From: a virus
Lineage: Duplodnaviria > Heunggongvirae > Uroviricota > Caudoviricetes
Strand: one strand, 5' to 3'
Virus record (IMG/VR): IMGVR_UViG_2778261460_000001
Coordinates: 1-36,755 of that record
Length of the DNA stretch: 36,755 nucleotides
The notes beneath the pieces were generated by a model that did no database searches, was not told the origin of the DNA, and saw nothing but the letters and a program-made list of their open reading frames with translations. The position numbers and the translations under genes are program-made. How positions within the stretch are numbered: position 1 is the first letter of the stretch; every line of letters starts with the position of its first letter. Below are positions 27,750-36,755 of the stretch, one piece after another.

Positions 27750-27968
27750 GTGGAGAAACATATGCTGAACCTCGATTGTGTTCCTATCTCAACTTATTGC
27801 AAAGAAACTGGCGAAACTCCTGAAGCAATAAACAAACGTGTACAGCGCGGTGTTTGGCGTGAAGGTGTTCAGGTTTTAAAGGTTGAAGGCGTTAAGGAGA
27901 GGTGGATTGATCTTAGTGAGGTTGCAAAATGGGCCAGACAAAACTGCTCAAACTACCGCGCGGCGTAA
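27750..27968 (+). CDS. Excisionase-like protein (putative Xis)
   Basis: 72-aa ORF immediately upstream of and overlapping the integrase start. Confidence 0.45.
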   Translation: MEKHMLNLDCVPISTYCKETGETPEAINKRVQRGVWREGVQVLKVEGVKERWIDLSEVAKWARQNCSNYRAA

Positions 27969-29095
27969 CAATCAGGAAACACCGCCAGGGCGAAACGATC
28001 AATATAACTTTCACCTACAAAGGTGTTAAATGTCGTGAGCCTCTTTCCAATCTGGAAGTAACACCAAAGAACATTAAATACGCCGAGCGCACACTCGGCG
28101 AAATTCATAATAAGATCGAAAGGGGAACATTCATTTATGCGGAATATTTTCCCCGTTCTGCTCGTTTGAAAATTTTTGGTAATGCTGCTGCAGGCAAAAC
28201 GGTAAAAATGTACCTGGACGAATACCTTGAAATCTGCGAAACGAGAAAACTTTCACCCTCTACGATTGGTGGCTATAAAAAATGCCGTAGTGCGTTAGCC
28301 TCACTTCACATTTGCCCTGCAAGTGAATTAACACCAGCAACCCTGAAAGCGTGGATTCAAAATCAGAAAACGACCTTAAAAACAATTCGCAACCAGTTAT
28401 CTTTCCTGCGGTCAGCACTTGATGAAGCCGTGACCGATGGGGTACTTCAAATTAACCCCGTATCGTTAGTAACAGCTTCGCGCTACCAAAGTGATAAGTC
28501 AGAAGCAGAAAGCAGCTACGTAGTTGATCCGCTATCACCAGCAGAAGTTGATGCATTACTAGCAGCAGCCGGAAACAAACAATGGGAAAATCTGTTCCGG
28601 TTCGCTATACATACAGGCCTGCGTAGTTCTGAATTATGTGCCCTTCGATGGCGTGATATCGACTTTGTTGGAAAAACTGCCCATGTCCAGAGCGCAAGTG
28701 TTGTCGGTGTTATCAAAGGGACAAAGACAAAAGCAGGTACTCGGAAAGTTGAACTGACAGAAGAGGCAATGTTGGCGCTGATAAATCAGAAGCCATTTAC
28801 ATTCATGAAGGATACTACTGTCTTTGAAGATCCAAAGACCAATAAGCCTTGGGCAAGTGCTGATGCAATTAGGAAAAAAGCATGGGTGCCAACATTGCGA
28901 AAAGCAGGTATTCGTTACAGAAACCCATATCAAACCAGGCATACATTCGCCACCAGCCATATCAGCCGAGGAGCAAACCTGTTTTGGCTTGCAGCTCAAA
29001 TGGGGCATAAAGGGCCGGAGATGCTTTTCAGGCACTATGGTCGATATCTCAAAGAATACGACGGAAAAAGCTCCATCAAATACATTATACAATGA
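27929..29095 (+). CDS. Tyrosine integrase (lambda Int family)
   Basis: 388-aa ORF with the catalytic R…H-x-x-R…Y tetrad context (…HTGLRSSELCALRWRDID…, …RHTFATSHISRGANLFWLAAQMGHKGPEMLFRHYGRYL…). Confidence 0.85.
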   Translation: MGQTKLLKLPRGVTIRKHRQGETINITFTYKGVKCREPLSNLEVTPKNIKYAERTLGEIHNKIERGTFIYAEYFPRSARLKIFGNAAAGKTVKMYLDEYLEICETRKLSPSTIGGYKKCRSALASLHICPASELTPATLKAWIQNQKTTLKTIRNQLSFLRSALDEAVTDGVLQINPVSLVTASRYQSDKSEAESSYVVDPLSPAEVDALLAAAGNKQWENLFRFAIHTGLRSSELCALRWRDIDFVGKTAHVQSASVVGVIKGTKTKAGTRKVELTEEAMLALINQKPFTFMKDTTVFEDPKTNKPWASADAIRKKAWVPTLRKAGIRYRNPYQTRHTFATSHISRGANLFWLAAQMGHKGPEMLFRHYGRYLKEYDGKSSIKYIIQ

Positions 29096-29738: not shown

Positions 29739-30080
29739 TCAACTCCTTTGGAAAGGCTTCCTTTCTGGATTAGCCATTTCAATATATCTAAAAATTTGAT
29801 CTTTATAGAACGGCAAATCACTTTTTATAATTAGTTTTGCCTTAATGTCAGCCTTAGGTACACCTTCCTTCCTAACAAGCCCTCCAAAGGCCTCCTCTAG
29901 AAACGAAGAACCAATCCCATGATTTATACCCGTAAAATCTACGACAACCTCACGCTCACCAGATTTTAATGCAGGAACCAGAAAGTCCTTACGAAAACGC
30001 TCAGCACTGTTCGGGCTGTCAGACTTGAACCTTCCAAATGGCATCTTTGAGAAATCCCTTGCTATGACGATGTTAACCAT
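29739..30080 (-). CDS. STAS-like (DUF4325-like) small protein
   Basis: 113-aa ORF with a strong Shine-Dalgarno (GGAGAGGAGAAG) that overlaps the upstream ATPase stop by 8 nt. The segment …EVVVDFTGINHGIGSSFLEEAFGGL… resembles STAS/anti-sigma-antagonist-like folds. Confidence 0.5.
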   Translation of the reverse strand: MVNIVIARDFSKMPFGRFKSDSPNSAERFRKDFLVPALKSGEREVVVDFTGINHGIGSSFLEEAFGGLVRKEGVPKADIKAKLIIKSDLPFYKDQIFRYIEMANPERKPFQRS

Positions 30081-30996
30081 CTTCTCCTCTCCTCGGAACT
30101 AATGACCATTCAATCAATGTTCCCGGCATGTACTCAGGTATCCACTCGCATTTGGGAACCTCATTTCTTGAATTATAGCTGTACTTAACATTCCCTGTGA
30201 ACACCAAAAGTGATTCTGAATTCGCACAGCCAGACCCTATAGGTCTCTTTATATCCTCAGAACCATTACCACGTCCAGCGTTAACATATCTGGACTGTCC
30301 TCCTGTCAGGGCTGTTGACACAGATGTCACGTCGTCATACCCAGTAAACAACGGAGAGGCTGAAGTAAATGATTTATGTATGCCAAGCCCAAGATCATAA
30401 ATAATAAAGACAACCTTGTCTGTGTCAGGGTTGTACCAACAACTCTGCCACCATCGTTTCCCTTGCATATGCTCTGTAGCACCAGCAAAGTCTGGATGTT
30501 CATATGCATGATATGAAACATTCAGCATTGCCTCACTAAGGGCTGAGGAGACCAAAAGATATTGCTCAAATGTGAGAATTGCTTTTGAATCAATAAATTC
30601 CATCGTTTTAGCCCAATGTTCATACGGTTCCACAGCAGACTGAAAGTACCTGCGTTCCTTAGTAAGAACATCTAATTTATCAACTGTATTTGCCATTAGA
30701 GCAATCGATAACCCCGTCCCAACAATATATCGATGCCCATACGGATTATTTTCTTTTTTCGGCCAAATAAATCGAAGACTACTTGTGCCGAATGCCATAA
30801 AATAAGCCCTACTGATGATAGCAAACAACCTTACGCTAGCTGCAGCACCTGCATATTCTACTGTCGAAAAGTCTATAACCACTTGTCCAGATGCTCTCGC
30901 AAGGGTGTTATCAACTGAGTTCAAAAACTTAGCTGTAACACGGCGATCAGAATCATTATAAAGGCACAATCTTTTTGGGGAAATCAACAGTTCCAT
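30073..30996 (-). CDS. GHKL-family ATPase / kinase-like protein (HATPase_c-type)
   Basis: 307-aa ORF with a GAGGTG Shine-Dalgarno. Bergerat-fold motifs appear in canonical order and spacing: N-box (LSEAMLNVSYHA), G1 (IYDLGLGIH = DxGxG), G2 (GRGNGSEDI = GxGxG). There is no H-box, so it is not a classical histidine kinase. Confidence 0.6.
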   Translation of the reverse strand: MELLISPKRLCLYNDSDRRVTAKFLNSVDNTLARASGQVVIDFSTVEYAGAAASVRLFAIISRAYFMAFGTSSLRFIWPKKENNPYGHRYIVGTGLSIALMANTVDKLDVLTKERRYFQSAVEPYEHWAKTMEFIDSKAILTFEQYLLVSSALSEAMLNVSYHAYEHPDFAGATEHMQGKRWWQSCWYNPDTDKVVFIIYDLGLGIHKSFTSASPLFTGYDDVTSVSTALTGGQSRYVNAGRGNGSEDIKRPIGSGCANSESLLVFTGNVKYSYNSRNEVPKCEWIPEYMPGTLIEWSLVPRRGEDG

Positions 30997-31137: not shown

Positions 31138-31167
31138 ACGCGGGTTCAACTCCCGCCAGCTCCACCA
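31138..31167 (+). other. ssrA: tmRNA (ssrA) 3'-terminal fragment, putative integration core (att)
   Basis: ACGCGGGTTCAACTCCCGCCAGCTCCACCA matches the T-arm plus acceptor 3' strand plus CCA of enterobacterial tmRNA. Upstream sequence is not tmRNA, so this is a duplicated 3' end, not the gene. Confidence 0.7.
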
Positions 31168-31332
31168 CTTTTTAGTTGTTTGAAGTTCAATGAAGTCTAC
31201 TAAGCCCACACAGCACAAGCTCTGCGGGCTTTTTTACGTCTATTGTCGTCCAGTGAGAATTGCTGAGAACTACGAGTTATGGCACCCTGAATGGGACCCA
31301 CTAAGAAGGGTCCAAAAACCGAGGGTCCCAAA

Positions 31333-32562
31333 ATGGCAAAAATCGCTAAGAAGCTCACTGACACTGAAATCAAAAGCACCAAGCCAGCCGATAAAGAAAT
31401 CAACTTGTTTGACGGTGATGGTCTGATTCTACGAATCGCTCCTTTGGCGAAAGGAGGCAAGAAAAATTGGTATTTCAGGTATGCAGTACCAGTGAGCAAG
31501 AAAAGAACCAAAATGAGCCTTGGGACATATCCTCACCTTACCCTTGCAAGAGCCAGAGCCTTACGTGATGAATATCTCTCCTTTCTGGCAAATGGTGTTG
31601 ATCCCCAAATCCATAACAACGATAAGGCGAAGGCATTAAAGAGTGCTACTGAGCACACTCTCCAAGCCGTAGCGCGGAAATGGTTAGATGAGAAGGTAAA
31701 GACATCAGGTATCTCACAAGACCATGCAGCAGACATCTGGCGCAGCTTAGAGAGAAATGTCTTTCCCGGTCTGGGTAATGTCCCTATCAATGAGATCCGA
31801 CCTAAGCTCTTAAAACAACACCTTGATCCTATTGAGCAACGAGGCGTATTGGAAACTCTACGCCGTATCATTTCACGTCTGAATGAAATCTTCCGGTGGG
31901 CAGCTACTGAAGAACTTATTGAGTTCAACCCGGCTGACAACCTTGGTCAAAGATTCAGTAAACCAAAAAAGCAAAATATGCCTGCCCTTCCCCCAAGCGA
32001 ATTGCCAAGGTTTATGGAATCTTTGACGAATGCGTCAATCCGGTTGGAAACACGTATGCTAATTGAATGGCAATTGTTGACATGGGTTCGTCCGGGTGAA
32101 GCCGTTCGCGCAAGGTGGTCTGATATTGATACAACCAACAGCATTTGGAACATTCCTGCTGATTTCATGAAAATGAAAAAGCTTCACAAAGTTCCTTTGA
32201 GTAAAGAAGCTTTGCGCATCCTTGAATTAATGAAATCAATAAGTGGGCATAGAGAATGGGTTTTCCCCAGCATAAAAGCGCCTCTTAATCATATGCATGA
32301 ACAAACAGCCAACGCAGCTATCATCCGAATGGGGTTCGGAGGCGAGCTTGTAGCTCACGGTATGCGTTCTATTGCACGAACAGCGGCAGAGGAGTCTGGT
32401 AAATTCAGAGCTGAAGTTCTTGAGGCAGCGCTTGCCCACTCGAAAAAAGATGAAATTATCGCAGCATACAATCGTGCAGAATATCTGATAGAGCGACAGA
32501 GTTTGATGCAATGGTGGAGTGATTACGTTCAAGCTCAAAGATCAAATGCTCTGGTAGCCTAA
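31333..32562 (+). CDS. P4-type (CP4-57-like) tyrosine integrase
   Basis: Start set to ATG 31333 with GAGGG upstream (the track ORF begins at 31291). The N-terminus (MAKIAKKLTDTEIKSTKPADKEINLFDGDGLILRIAPLAKGGKKNWYFRY) is the P4-integrase-family signature, and a C-terminal catalytic region follows (…HGMRSIARTAAEE…AHS…Y…). It sits about 165 nt downstream of the ssrA fragment on the same strand. Confidence 0.85.
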   Translation: MAKIAKKLTDTEIKSTKPADKEINLFDGDGLILRIAPLAKGGKKNWYFRYAVPVSKKRTKMSLGTYPHLTLARARALRDEYLSFLANGVDPQIHNNDKAKALKSATEHTLQAVARKWLDEKVKTSGISQDHAADIWRSLERNVFPGLGNVPINEIRPKLLKQHLDPIEQRGVLETLRRIISRLNEIFRWAATEELIEFNPADNLGQRFSKPKKQNMPALPPSELPRFMESLTNASIRLETRMLIEWQLLTWVRPGEAVRARWSDIDTTNSIWNIPADFMKMKKLHKVPLSKEALRILELMKSISGHREWVFPSIKAPLNHMHEQTANAAIIRMGFGGELVAHGMRSIARTAAEESGKFRAEVLEAALAHSKKDEIIAAYNRAEYLIERQSLMQWWSDYVQAQRSNALVA

Positions 32563-32600
32563 GTATCAGAATAGCTAATATAATCCTGAAGGTAAAGAAA

Positions 32601-33017
32601 ATGGAAACCCTATTCAAAGTTTTTGAAAAATTTAGTTCCAGACCACTTTTTTTTATTTTTTTCGGACTCTCACTTTGTGAATTTTTTCAGAAACAATCTG
32701 TTCTGATGAATCCATCAGCAGATAACATCGCGAAATTATTCGCAGCCATGATATTAGTTGTTTTTTTTACTTGGGGATTTGAATGGCTAATCTTCAAGTT
32801 CAATGTAAACCTTGAACCTCATGATCAAGGCGATATTGGACCAACAATTGGAACGGCTACTTTAGCTGTATACTTAGTTTATGCCTTTCACTTTCTCAGT
32901 GAAAATCCTGAAGCATTAAATTTAAAGTTATTAACTAACTCTGGCTTTATATACAGCACAACTCTATTATTATTCTCATTAGAATGCATGAAGCTTAGAA
33001 GACTTAAACAAAAATAA
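32601..33017 (+). CDS. Small multi-pass membrane protein
   Basis: 138-aa AT-rich ORF with 3 to 4 predicted transmembrane helices and an AAGGTAAAG Shine-Dalgarno-like sequence upstream; convergent with the receiver-effector gene. Confidence 0.4.
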   Translation: METLFKVFEKFSSRPLFFIFFGLSLCEFFQKQSVLMNPSADNIAKLFAAMILVVFFTWGFEWLIFKFNVNLEPHDQGDIGPTIGTATLAVYLVYAFHFLSENPEALNLKLLTNSGFIYSTTLLLFSLECMKLRRLKQK

Positions 33018-33088
33018 ACAACATCATTGTGATGATAAATATAAAATAGGCATGGCGAAAAAAAATCACCACGCCTAAAATATAATAA

Positions 33089-34855
33089 TTATGGTAGCAT
33101 CATTGATACATAATCCACACCAATCCTTGAGCTATACTGAGACGCTATAGCCTGATATCTTTCTGCATAACCAGTTCTCAGTTGAGATTTAAGTTTGAGT
33201 CGGACAGGAACATTTTGCACGTTGCCATCCATATTACTTAAAAACACGGCAGAAATAATATTTTTTTCTTCGCCATCAACTGTTGTTCCATGATTCAACA
33301 CCACCATATAATCAACAACAGGAAGCGTTTTATCCCCTTCGAAAATAGAGAGATATTTTCTTTGATTTTTATGCATTACATATATATATTTCGAATGTTC
33401 AGCAAATGGCAATGCTTTACTCTGACTGGCGTTAAAAAGCTCCAGAACTTTAATGAGCCTGTGCGGACTTAATCTTACATGGTGAGGGTCGTTACCCTGA
33501 GTAGGAACCAAATCACATGCCGCAGATACACATAAATACCATTTGTTCGACTCTGTATCAAAGAAAATAGTGCCAGTAGAAATATGACCATCTTCAAAAT
33601 TCTTTGAAGACAAATTCATATTTAAAGCATGATACATTTCGTGATAAGTATCATTATTTGATGGCAGATCCATTTTTGAAGAGCAATATTGGAGCAATGC
33701 AGCAACTCCGCTGTTAGCGTATTCATTTGAATAGCTATCAAAAACACTTTTGATAAATTCATCCAGCGTATTATTATTTTTAAGTCTTTGATAAAGCTCT
33801 TCTGATAAATTACCAAATACAAAGTCAATATTTCTACATCTAATATCAGGCGAGTCTGATTTTAATATCTCATTTAACCACGCAGCTTGACCGTAATGAT
33901 CGTTAGCCAAATGATTTACAAAAGATAAAGCCTCAGCTTCGATTGCATTCTGAATTTCAGATTTTATTAACTGATAATAAGATGGTTTCCATTCAATGAG
34001 AGAATCATTGAGAGTTTGCCAAATCCTATCTCCATCGTTTTCATGATCATCTTGAACCTTATGAAATAGGGAGACAAAGATATTACCACATTGAATCCAT
34101 TTTACTCCGCTTTCATCACCCCGAATGACATTGCCAGATGTGTTGCTAGAAATAATTGCATTTCTAGACACAGCATATTCTGCAATCATTTTTGCAATGA
34201 AGTTTTTATCCTTTTGATCCTCCAACACAGCATCATCATGTATTAATCTTTTAATTCTTCTACAAGGCTTACTGTCTTTAATATAGGCTATTGTTTCATC
34301 TCTTGTGAGAGCTTTATTACCATTATCATTTAAGTTCGGTAATACAACGTCTTCCCAATAACTTTGGACATCTTCATTATCGTAGTCAATGATCAAGCTG
34401 TTGATATCCAGAGCACCTTTGAGAGTCGATGATATCTGCATCCAAACCGTTTCTAAATTCTCTCTAGTATATATTACAATCATATTTAAATGATCGGAGT
34501 CTTTCAAATCTTGTAATAGTTTAAGTGTTTTATCAGGTGCATTATTATCAAGATGATAATCTACAATAATAAGATCTGATTTCCTAATCCGATCCACACC
34601 GAAATTAACAGAACCATTGTCAACATCACAAATCATATTTTTAGATTGAAAAAAGCTCTCAAGAGTAGCGGCTCGTTTAGATGAGTCAATTTTGTTGTAG
34701 TCTAAATCAACTTCGTTATTCAACGCCCTGATTGATTCAGAATACGTCAGAAAATCGTCATCAATCATGACAACGGAACGAATTGCATTTTCGCAGAAAG
34801 TTTTCTGGACAAGAGAATTATAATTTGCCACTGTCATATTAGAACTCCACTCCAT
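33089..34855 (-). CDS. Receiver (REC)-like domain protein with a large uncharacterised C-terminal domain (candidate effector)
   Basis: N-terminal receiver-like landmarks: acidic pocket (VVMIDDDF), candidate phospho-acceptor Asp (SDLIIVDYHL) and the conserved Thr region (MIVIYT), followed by about 400 aa with no motif I recognise. An alternative start at ATG 34837 has a GGAGTGGAG Shine-Dalgarno. It overlaps the upstream kinase gene stop. Very AT-rich. Confidence 0.55.
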   Translation of the reverse strand: MEWSSNMTVANYNSLVQKTFCENAIRSVVMIDDDFLTYSESIRALNNEVDLDYNKIDSSKRAATLESFFQSKNMICDVDNGSVNFGVDRIRKSDLIIVDYHLDNNAPDKTLKLLQDLKDSDHLNMIVIYTRENLETVWMQISSTLKGALDINSLIIDYDNEDVQSYWEDVVLPNLNDNGNKALTRDETIAYIKDSKPCRRIKRLIHDDAVLEDQKDKNFIAKMIAEYAVSRNAIISSNTSGNVIRGDESGVKWIQCGNIFVSLFHKVQDDHENDGDRIWQTLNDSLIEWKPSYYQLIKSEIQNAIEAEALSFVNHLANDHYGQAAWLNEILKSDSPDIRCRNIDFVFGNLSEELYQRLKNNNTLDEFIKSVFDSYSNEYANSGVAALLQYCSSKMDLPSNNDTYHEMYHALNMNLSSKNFEDGHISTGTIFFDTESNKWYLCVSAACDLVPTQGNDPHHVRLSPHRLIKVLELFNASQSKALPFAEHSKYIYVMHKNQRKYLSIFEGDKTLPVVDYMVVLNHGTTVDGEEKNIISAVFLSNMDGNVQNVPVRLKLKSQLRTGYAERYQAIASQYSSRIGVDYVSMMLP

Positions 34856-36557
34856 TGAACTGGATCACAAAATTAGCGCCATCTTTTATTAAATAGTTAT
34901 CGCCTTCATCAGGTTCTGAATACCATATTTTATGATGTGCAACAGCAAGGTTTTCTCGACATAGATACAGACCTACCCCATGTCCATTTGCTCTTTTGCT
35001 ATAAAATAGTTCAAATAGTCGCGGGATATCATCGGTATCAATTGCCGGACCAGAATTTGCTATGATAACCAAAGAATTCACAAAACCAATCTTTATGAGC
35101 CTATTATTTGACAGACTGACCCAATACATTGCATTGTTGATAATATTAGTAAAAACAGGATAGATCCTTGATGGTATATCTGTTATTGCGATTTGCTTAA
35201 ACTCTTCACTAAATTCAATAGTTATTCGTTGCCGTTCGAAACGCTCCCCAAAGAACTTCAGGACATAATCCATGATATTTTTTCCAGTTATTCTCTGCCT
35301 GGATTGATAACCTGATATTTTCAAAGGTGATAAGAAACGTATTTGTTGAGTAAGCGATCTGTGAGCATTTAACGCCAATGAAAAACCAGGGTGTTCTTTT
35401 ACAGAAGTAGGAAGAGAGTTTAGTCCTCTGGTTACCATAGAATCCATTTCTTCAAGTTCATGAGATATTATCTCAACACTAATACCTAACTGTGCAAGCG
35501 CGTTTAAACTTTTAGCTTTTTCTTCAAAATATGAGCGTTCTTCTTCAGATAATGAGAATGCTGAATCTAAGTTTATACCTTCAAATAATCTATCGAGACC
35601 TTTTATTATTGATTGATATTTGAAAGTTAGGGTATCAACTGACTCAACATATAAACTATCGAGCAAATTAAACACATTTTCAATTTGTGAATCATTATCT
35701 ATTGAATCAACAACTGATATAGTTTTAGCATAATAATCACTTCGATCAACCTTTATTTCATCGGCCCATTTTTTTAAAAGAGAATGTATCTTCTCCTCTA
35801 TCGTGTTATTAAACTTAGTTAGTTTAGAATTAATAATACCTTGATTTTTTTCAAGGTGATTTTTCGCTGACAATGAAGGCTCAAGTTTATTTAATTCAGA
35901 ATCAAGTTTATTAATTGCTAACTTCATTTGTAGAATATACGCAGAGAACTCATTAAATTTATCTCTGTAGTCTCTATATTTCTCTTCATACATTCCAAGT
36001 TTTGGAGGTTTGATAGGCGTTTTAATTTCACTGCGCAACGCATCTAAGTTTGTAAGATCACTGTCTATAATTTTAAGATAGTTTAAATCTAACGAACCAT
36101 CAGTTTTATCAAGCTTAGTTTTCAGCCTTTTAACAGCCTCCAAGGAAGCATCAAGAACTGGTGTCTGATTCTTCAAAGCTTCTGAAAAACTTTTTTGTGT
36201 TGATTTTCGAGCTTGTTGTTGAGCAGATTTTCTTAACTCTTTTTCACGCTTAACTTGTTCTAAAAGCTCTTTACGGTCATCAGAACGTGAACCAAAAAAT
36301 CTATCAGCAAGTTCAGTTAACAAATTAGATATAATAGTTTTCAGTTCTCTTGCAGCCTGGTTTCTTATGAATCCCTCTCTCCCCGACTTATCTTTCAGCT
36401 CTTTATTACTGGATTGAGTAATTCCAATATAACCAAAAATCCTTCTATTAGACCAATAATATCGCCCTGCATTCCATGAACGTCTTTCTTCTATCTGGAA
36501 GAAATCATTATCTACTCGACCATAAGGTAATACTCTCAAGCTATCCCTAAAAATCAT
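34839..36557 (-). CDS. Histidine-kinase-like protein (HisKA-type H-box plus HATPase_c), cytoplasmic, possibly 5'-truncated
   Basis: H-box-like (…LAQLGISVEIISHELEEM…), N-box (FTNIINNAMYW) and G2 (ANGHGVGLYL), with no transmembrane segments and a long helical N-terminal region. The reading frame stays open upstream of the ATG at 36557 right up to the IS3 terminus at 36679. Confidence 0.65.
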   Translation of the reverse strand: MIFRDSLRVLPYGRVDNDFFQIEERRSWNAGRYYWSNRRIFGYIGITQSSNKELKDKSGREGFIRNQAARELKTIISNLLTELADRFFGSRSDDRKELLEQVKREKELRKSAQQQARKSTQKSFSEALKNQTPVLDASLEAVKRLKTKLDKTDGSLDLNYLKIIDSDLTNLDALRSEIKTPIKPPKLGMYEEKYRDYRDKFNEFSAYILQMKLAINKLDSELNKLEPSLSAKNHLEKNQGIINSKLTKFNNTIEEKIHSLLKKWADEIKVDRSDYYAKTISVVDSIDNDSQIENVFNLLDSLYVESVDTLTFKYQSIIKGLDRLFEGINLDSAFSLSEEERSYFEEKAKSLNALAQLGISVEIISHELEEMDSMVTRGLNSLPTSVKEHPGFSLALNAHRSLTQQIRFLSPLKISGYQSRQRITGKNIMDYVLKFFGERFERQRITIEFSEEFKQIAITDIPSRIYPVFTNIINNAMYWVSLSNNRLIKIGFVNSLVIIANSGPAIDTDDIPRLFELFYSKRANGHGVGLYLCRENLAVAHHKIWYSEPDEGDNYLIKDGANFVIQFNGVEF

Positions 36558-36678
36558 TAGTCCTGCATACTTTTTGGCCTTAAGATCAAAGTGGGAATGT
36601 TCACGTTCAGTATGTGATGTATTTTGTGAAAGGAATTCAAACGTTCCTATCTGAAGCTCAAATGGGCCGACCCCTGCG

Positions 36679-36755
36679 TGATCCTACCCACGTAATATGG
36701 ACACAGGCCTAAGCGAGGTTCTTGTTTTCAAATTGTTCCGGACTGAGGCCGCCAC
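36679..36755 (-). mobile_element. IS3-family insertion sequence, terminal inverted repeat and transposase (orfB) 3' end (partial)
   Basis: The terminus TGATCCTACCCACGTAATATGGACACAGGCC at 36679 matches the IS3 inverted repeat as I recall it. The minus strand encodes the transposase C-terminus …GGLSPEQFENKNLA-stop (stop at 36709-36711). The element continues past the window end. Confidence 0.65.

Follow-up and report, generated by a model that had tools for sequence, protein, structure and literature searches.

The window (the whole 36,755-nt stretch of DNA analysed here), part of an E. coli chromosome, very probably holds the proximal stump of a mobilizable island that had integrated at ssrA and was cut by an IS3-associated deletion, with the surviving gene pair now non-functional and decaying. 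The features on which this reading rests are given below, in window coordinates.

31138 to 31167, plus strand: copy of the ssrA 3' end (attachment-site repeat), the proximal end of the island remnant
31333 to 32562, plus strand: island tyrosine integrase (Arm-DNA-bind_3, Phage_int_M and Phage_integrase domains)
32601 to 33017, plus strand: 138-aa hypothetical protein, in the same position in intact islands and with no family match
33089 to 34837, minus strand: partner gene of 582 aa, with a Response_reg_2 receiver and an output region of about 350 residues
34839 to 36557, minus strand: 572-aa open reading frame (ORF) annotated 'ATP-binding protein', corresponding to ancestral residues 417-988
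36558 to 36678, minus strand: retained coding sequence that lacks a start, codons 377-416 of the ancestral 988-codon gene
36679 to 36755, minus strand: right end (IRR) of IS3, 77 bases, reaching the window edge
36684 to 36686, minus strand: first in-frame stop (TAG) 5' of the kinase-like ORF, inside the IS3 terminal repeat
36730 to 36735, minus strand: CAATTT, the −10-like hexamer of the described outward promoter P3R, facing the kinase remnant

The IS3 border and the truncated kinase-like gene

An earlier note, made from the letters of the window, had placed an IS3-type element at its end and the transposase C-terminus on the minus strand, and both were recovered where it put them: the terminal repeat of IS3 (TGATCCTACCCACG...) has its first base at 36679, and translation of the minus strand gave the end of the transposase (...GGLSPEQFENKNLA, stop codon at 36709-36711), of which only the final 14 codons lie inside the window. 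Annotation of this junction in complete E. coli genomes reads 'IS3-like element IS3 family transposase'. The IS3 copy in locus L001 (9380-10637) is 1258 bp long and ends TGATCCTACCC...GGGTAAGATCA; its size and its imperfect inverted repeats ending TG...CA (termini TGATCC...GATCA) fit IS3, and the RefSeq label for this copy, 'programmed frameshift', is that of two overlapping transposase frames linked by −1 frameshifting. The IS3 transposase at the junction carries an internal stop in O26-type genomes and in E2865 (L001 9410-10572; L012 6210-7372) and is intact in SE11, so the element itself is decaying in some lineages.

The 572-aa ORF begins at the first ATG, GTG or TTG after a stop, and upstream translation confirmed the claim that its frame stays open from the ATG at 36557 to the IS3 terminus: 42 codons are free of stops, up to the TAG that lies 6-8 nt into the IS3 repeat. 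The chance of 42 stop-free codons in AT-rich DNA is about 0.05-0.15 by a rough estimate, which is not improbable alone; the open frame is decisive because its codons are homologous to those of 988-aa proteins. When the extended 614-aa translation of the window (start-less upstream codons included) was used as a protein query, 988-aa homologs from Salmonella, Klebsiella and Serratia were 99% identical across its whole length. The 40 codons before the ATG (AGVGPFELQ...KKYAGL) correspond to residues 377-416 of these homologs, all identical, and codon 376 is a hybrid with the IS3 end. Pairwise alignment to residues 376-988 of one such homolog (P0006) gave 607 identities in 613 residues and placed the annotated Met at residue 417. 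In the DNA, window positions 31138-36679 are 99.0% identical to an intact locus (L003, 16667-11127); the alignment ends at the IS3 end, and L003 extends the gene 1126 nt further beyond this breakpoint.

On these results, the ancestral gene was longer and the window gene is what survives of its 3' part, with the break at the IS3 end. Alignment with full-length homologs shows N-terminal residues to be missing, as had been anticipated; judged by these homologs, 376 of the 988 residues are lost, or 416 if translation starts at the ATG at 36557. What remains in the 572-aa ORF is a coiled-coil region, a HEF_HK (DHp-like) domain and a HATPase_c domain. The 614-aa translation matched PF19191 (HEF_HK) at residues 398-456 with 26.2 bits (cut-off, 24.1) and PF02518 (HATPase_c) with 44.7 bits (cut-off, 26.4), and had no match to PF13589 (HATPase_c_3). 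The HEF_HK motif, ...EIISHELEE..., is visible in the alignment as a conserved His followed by an acidic residue, and H782, E783, L784 and E785 are invariant across 31 homologs. Sensor kinase catalytic domains in the PDB also matched the remnant by sequence (up to 7e-7).

In the 988-aa protein, HATPase_c_3 (PF13589) occupies residues 28-137, HEF_HK residues 772-830 and HATPase_c residues 878-969, and the lost region thus comprises the PF13589 domain and the approximately 240 residues that follow it. The best NCBIfam match of the N-terminal 125 residues is to the GHKL module of the BbrUII/HgiDII restriction enzymes (NF050001, 1.5e-13), at 50 bits against a family cut-off of 550, meaning that the ATPase module alone is shared. 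The idea that a longer ancestral gene had been cut at the IS therefore holds, whereas the idea that a sensor region had been removed needs correction: on its domain matches, the lost N-terminus is a paraMORC-type GHKL ATPase region and not a conventional sensor of the periplasmic or PAS type. The cargo protein of the intact island is predicted to be a soluble, 988-aa protein that joins a paraMORC-type ATPase, a coiled coil and a histidine-kinase core.

The position of the first available start within this protein also bears on its product. Twelve of the 21 residues at 415-435 are invariant across the family (G415, L416, F419, R420, D421 and L423-G429), and Met-417 falls in a stretch of predicted beta-strands in a low-confidence AF2 model of the full 988-aa protein (pLDDT 59.8, with the N-terminus below 40), which was used for its secondary-structure outline alone. 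A product starting at Met-417 would likely begin inside a highly conserved, probably beta-rich domain that is itself likely to be folded.

A deletion beside IS3 and its later excisions

Intact relatives of the island show what once adjoined the remnant. In five loci (L003 and L007-L010, recovered via three distinct 988-aa proteins with the source names Serratia, Salmonella and Klebsiella), the operon runs from a C5 cytosine DNA methylase gene through the 988-aa gene to the Response_reg_2 gene; there is an overlap of 20 nt between the methylase gene and the start of the kinase-like gene, which is followed within 2 nt by the receiver gene. On their proximal side, the intact islands carry the 138-aa gene, the integrase and ssrA/smpB, and on their distal side a relaxase and further recombinases. 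Homology between the window and these islands begins at 31138, a position equal to 1239 of locus L002, in which ssrA spans 906-1268. No tmRNA was found in the window, ssrA itself lying outside it.

The other end of IS3 leads elsewhere. It adjoins a 5'-truncated ygaQ amylase gene, of which the last 1108 of 2253 nt remain, and beyond this lie glaH-lhgO-gabDTP in complete E. coli genomes; the tRNA gene ileY and ypjCB, which are 5' of ygaQ in other strains, are missing at this junction. The bases flanking IS3 are GCG on the left and AGA on the right, so the 3-bp target duplication sought at the other end of the element is absent, and flanks that derive from two different truncated genes point to deletion or recombination after insertion and not to an element of another kind. 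Furthermore, the methylase gene and the missing 5' kinase DNA were found in none of 5426 complete E. coli genomes at megablast sensitivity. Given that the 5' part is absent across IS3, that there is no duplication and that the missing DNA is nowhere in E. coli, the event was an IS3-associated deletion and not a simple insertion. The earlier account of an IS that truncated the gene by inserting into it is thus right as to the position of the break, at the IS3 end, and wrong as to a simple insertion, with ygaQ on the other side.

The deletion linked codon 376 of the kinase-like gene with nucleotide 1146 of ygaQ, removing the ATPase domain, the methylase gene and the operon promoter region, and taking with them the relaxase, the recombinases and the distal att site of the island and backbone genes including the tRNA gene ileY. 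Left behind is a promoter-less 3' fragment whose first usable start is the internal Met at residue 417, followed by the intact receiver gene. Two routes could produce this outcome: one IS3 copy may have deleted the DNA next to it, or two copies may have recombined with each other. IS3 adjacent deletions, and excision promoted by the IS-excision enhancer (IEE), have been documented (PMC8860574).

Homologous recombination between one IS3 copy in the kinase-like gene and another in ygaQ is a serious possibility, albeit one that we regard as somewhat doubtful. It predicts a single IS3 with non-matching flanks, as does the one-copy route, and multiple copies are usual in E. coli (a median of 3 matches to this IS3 end per genome); against it, no ygaQ::IS3 single-insertion intermediate at this site was found in any genome, and IS3 is reported to make adjacent deletions readily (PMC8860574), neither of which is decisive. 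A simple IS3 insertion, with the remaining 5' sequence and the other genes of the system preserved beyond the element, would equally leave the frame open into the IS3 end and is scarcely credible in view of the ygaQ-glaH-lhgO-gabDTP sequence at the other end in complete genomes, the unmatched GCG and AGA flanks, and the absence of N-terminal and methylase DNA from the complete E. coli genomes at megablast sensitivity.

Under the IS3-associated deletion, the few genomes that lack IS3 at this position, such as O103:H2 strain 129 and RM9975, can also be placed. These have at least three different junctions between the kinase remnant and ygaQ: in L002 (6770-6785), the left flank is 2 nt and the right flank about 20 nt shorter, and the joint is at a TG microhomology; in L016 (5175-5190), 6 nt are lost on the right, with a CG filler; and a third scar is implied by a protein, P0002. 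The L016-type scar creates a new in-frame ATG and, with it, a 614-aa ORF (P0001). Overall, the IS3-less junctions have lost 0-2 nt of left and 6-20 nt of right flank, with 0-2 nt of microhomology or filler. These forms lack flanking bases that are common to the IS3-bearing form and the intact gene, which marks them as secondary excisions; from their sequences, each arose on its own by imprecise excision, an event of the kind that the IS-excision enhancer promotes. The locus is a tidy natural record of IS3 insertion, of deletion and of several imprecise excisions.

Possible residual expression, distribution and probable decay

Expression of the remnant from IS3 is geometrically possible, by way of the putative promoter P3R. 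The right end of IS3 and its transposase gene are oriented into the remnant; any residual transcription would for this reason come from IS3, either as read-through from the transposase promoter or from the reported P3R. The P3R motif positions were mapped in L001 (offset to the window, +27299), and the TTGGTG partner of CAATTT falls at the window edge or just outside it. Both candidate outward promoters proposed in the literature occur in this copy: TTGGTG...CAATTT lies at 81 and 56 nt from the IS3 end, and TTTAAT-15 nt-TACAAT at 125 and 104 nt. The sequence AGGA is found 3 nt before the ATG of the 572-aa ORF, and a consensus scan of the junction detected no terminator-like site between IS3 and the remnant. 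The same scan found 3 promoter-like sites, all within the transposase gene, against 1.6 ± 1.3 expected. P3R has been called a strong outward promoter in one paper; in a 2025 reporter study, the wild-type 150-bp IS3 right end had no detectable promoter activity.

The remnant is present in 561 of 5426 complete E. coli genomes at an identity of at least 99%, SE11 and O26:H11 11368 among them, and 555 of these have a single match over at least 80% of a 456-nt junction-spanning query. Every inspected match shows the identical IS3 junction, which fits one ancestral event behind the junction shared by about 10% of complete E. coli genomes. Most genomes have kept both remnant ORFs whole, and PGAP gives them no pseudogene flag. 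Nonetheless, disruptions (frameshifts, an internal stop and IS insertions) have arisen independently in sublineages: the receiver gene is frameshifted in SE11-type genomes, the kinase remnant is frameshifted in C311, and IS1 or IS3 insertions interrupt the remnant pair of two other genomes. The disruptions noted lie at L011 (SE11) 2590-4340, L017 3339-5059 and L018 1590-5059 and in matches H95 and H114. Between window positions 33000 and 36000, length differences are seen in approximately 16 of 58 genomes sampled evenly. Relative to intact relatives, the kinase remnant has 5 N to 4 S changes and the receiver gene 2 N to 11 S, a low nonsynonymous share that counts against decay; both sets are too small to reveal relaxed constraint, and most of the changes may predate the deletion.

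The ancestral function cannot have been retained, because the ATPase domain, the methylase and the operon promoter region are gone, and we infer that the remnant pair decays neutrally. The suggestion in the earlier note that the system is inactivated is accordingly favoured, by the independent frameshifts and stops in sublineages, and is tempered by the intact ORFs of most copies. One might instead suppose that the remnant has been domesticated, with the truncated kinase core (residues 417-988) and the receiver forming an orphan phosphorelay driven from an IS3 promoter and kept by selection in phylogroup-B1-like E. coli, for example as a kinase freed from control by the lost ATPase and methylase. 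The intact ORFs in most of the 561 genomes would agree with this, as would the IS3 outward motifs that face the remnant with no terminator-like site between, the AGGA upstream of the ATG and the excision scar that lengthens the ORF to 614 aa. We nevertheless consider it improbable, in either form: several sublineages carry independent frameshifts, a stop or IS insertions, the wild-type IS3 right end was silent in the reporter study, and a start at Met-417 would lie inside a likely folded domain (according to the low-confidence model). In addition, copies that are 99.7-100% identical are expected to have intact ORFs even without selection.

Two apparent features of the database records were considered and rejected. 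A hypervariable patch at residues 263-278 of the 572-aa ORF (35724-35771, minus strand) was suggested by the substitutions that nearly all of 32 separately listed 572-aa E. coli variants carry within it; the patch varies in 16 of 561 genomes, compared with 21 of 561 for a control stretch, and is most likely a database clustering artefact around the lineage-specific residue V270. A 453-aa receiver variant (P0128, with 1605 cluster members) is a contig-end partial sequence and not a widespread truncation.

The intact operon, related systems and neighbouring genes

The partner gene starts 1 nt after the stop of the kinase remnant, adjacent and co-oriented, and its protein matched PF19192 (Response_reg_2) and gave a good model (pLDDT 85) in which the acidic pocket residues are invariant; the receiver Asp is D88. 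Its C-terminal output region of about 350 residues (window 33089-34140) is also well modelled, helical and then beta-rich, with invariant residues that include C436, C441, Q552, R554, Y557, R571, G573 and D575; neither by sequence nor by fold did it match anything in Pfam, NCBIfam, PADLOC or the PDB.

Proteins of this kind have been described before. The HEF_HK/Response_reg_2 family was defined bioinformatically in 2021 (Bellieny-Rabelo, Pretorius and Moleleki, Genome Biol Evol; PMC8011034), HEF_HK being a DHp-like domain with a conserved His-Glu, Response_reg_2 a divergent receiver domain, and the kinase-like protein a relative of paraMORC ATPases. Of the 644 regions surveyed there, 91.6% had the two genes side by side, and a C5 methylase gene usually lay upstream. 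The window pair resembles this family in its matches to PF19191 and PF02518 on one side and PF19192 on the other, and in being adjacent and co-oriented; its 99%-identical intact relatives agree with the predominant 'group 1' of the survey (HATPase_c_3, HEF_HK and HATPase_c, with a C5 methylase immediately upstream), from which the window copy differs, through the IS3-associated deletion, in lacking both HATPase_c_3 and the methylase.

For the intact system, we propose that the methylase would mark self DNA, that the GHKL ATPase part may sense or engage DNA or nucleotides, and that the kinase core would then phosphorylate the receiver protein and switch its output. His-to-Asp phosphotransfer between the two proteins is predicted from conserved residues; the literature searched contained no experiment on the function of the intact system or on phosphotransfer. 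From the gene content, the ancestral system appears to have been a conflict or defence module linked to restriction-modification, an association that is backed for the family by published neighbourhood analysis (PMC8011034). The BbrUII/HgiDII restriction enzymes and paraMORC ATPases (Iyer, Abhiman and Aravind, 2008; PMC2292703) share the GHKL module and an adjacent C5 methylase with this operon; they differ in that the match reaches 50 of the required 550 bits and that none of the three proteins was found to have a nuclease domain. The insertion-deletion-excision model for IS3 (Kanai, Tsuru and Furusawa, 2022, NAR; PMC8860574) is approached in the 1258-bp IS3 between truncated genes with no duplication and in the IS3-less scars, which match its deletion and excision products, whereas the outcome here is gene loss and not operon formation.

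A further comparison is with two-component-signalling defence. In Detocs and other systems of this type, a soluble kinase-like sensor signals to a receiver-effector protein. The intact operon would follow the same general logic, here on a mobile island, by analogy only: searched against PADLOC-DB 2.0.0 (E ≤ 0.01), the kinase remnant, the receiver protein and the 138-aa protein had no match.

The window copy would score in 'group 2' of the survey (HEF_HK and HATPase_c), yet it is a fragment, and other entries of this appearance have similar histories. Proteins of 572 aa with approximately 83% identity and a start at the equivalent Met are on record in Klebsiella, Salmonella, Yersinia, Morganella and Pectobacterium, and two were inspected on their contigs (two more, P0079 and P0085, were not located on contigs). 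In the Klebsiella case (L006, 6734-9719), a frameshift at residue 309/310 divides the gene and leaves a 314-aa HATPase_c_3 ORF just upstream, and in the Salmonella case (L019, 2735-5719), an uninterrupted 994-codon ORF has had its start under-called at the internal Met. Neither is a natural short form; homologs that begin at the Met with no N-terminal domain would have spoken against a truncation, and both inspected cases proved to be artefacts. It is thus very unlikely that the window gene is a natural short-form kinase whose true start is the ATG at 36557, with IS3 merely upstream and the frame open by chance: the 572-aa records in five genera and the 34 of 222 family members without HATPase_c_3 in the survey (PMC8011034) lend it some plausibility, and it is refuted for this lineage by the identity of the 40 upstream codons to residues 377-416, the inspected cases being a frameshifted gene and an under-called start.

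That the window gene is a truncated fragment has consequences for annotation. About 10% of complete E. coli genomes carry the 572-aa 'ATP-binding protein' (WP_000577251 and its variants), which annotation should treat as a pseudogene remnant and not as a short kinase in its own right. The 'group 2' architecture is contaminated, and may be inflated, by fragments and under-called starts, at least two other entries resembling it (L006 and L019) being artefacts, so that any claim of a dispensable ATPase domain should be checked again; judging from the 34 of 222 members, a kinase core without this domain might work in some lineages. The near-identical intact copies in Salmonella, Klebsiella and Serratia are usable for testing the methylase-linked, two-component-like system. 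The locus itself is an ordinary, slowly decaying remnant of an already described gene family, and nothing in it would surprise a specialist.

The rest of the window (1-31137) is a prophage that shares the ssrA attachment site with the island remnant in a tandem arrangement; its integrase is at 27929-29095, and its structural and early genes are upstream. Between the prophage and island integrases, on the minus strand at 29739-30996, lie two overlapping genes that look like a cargo pair; one product is a STAS-like DUF4325 protein of 113 aa, and the other, of 307 aa, has no Pfam match.
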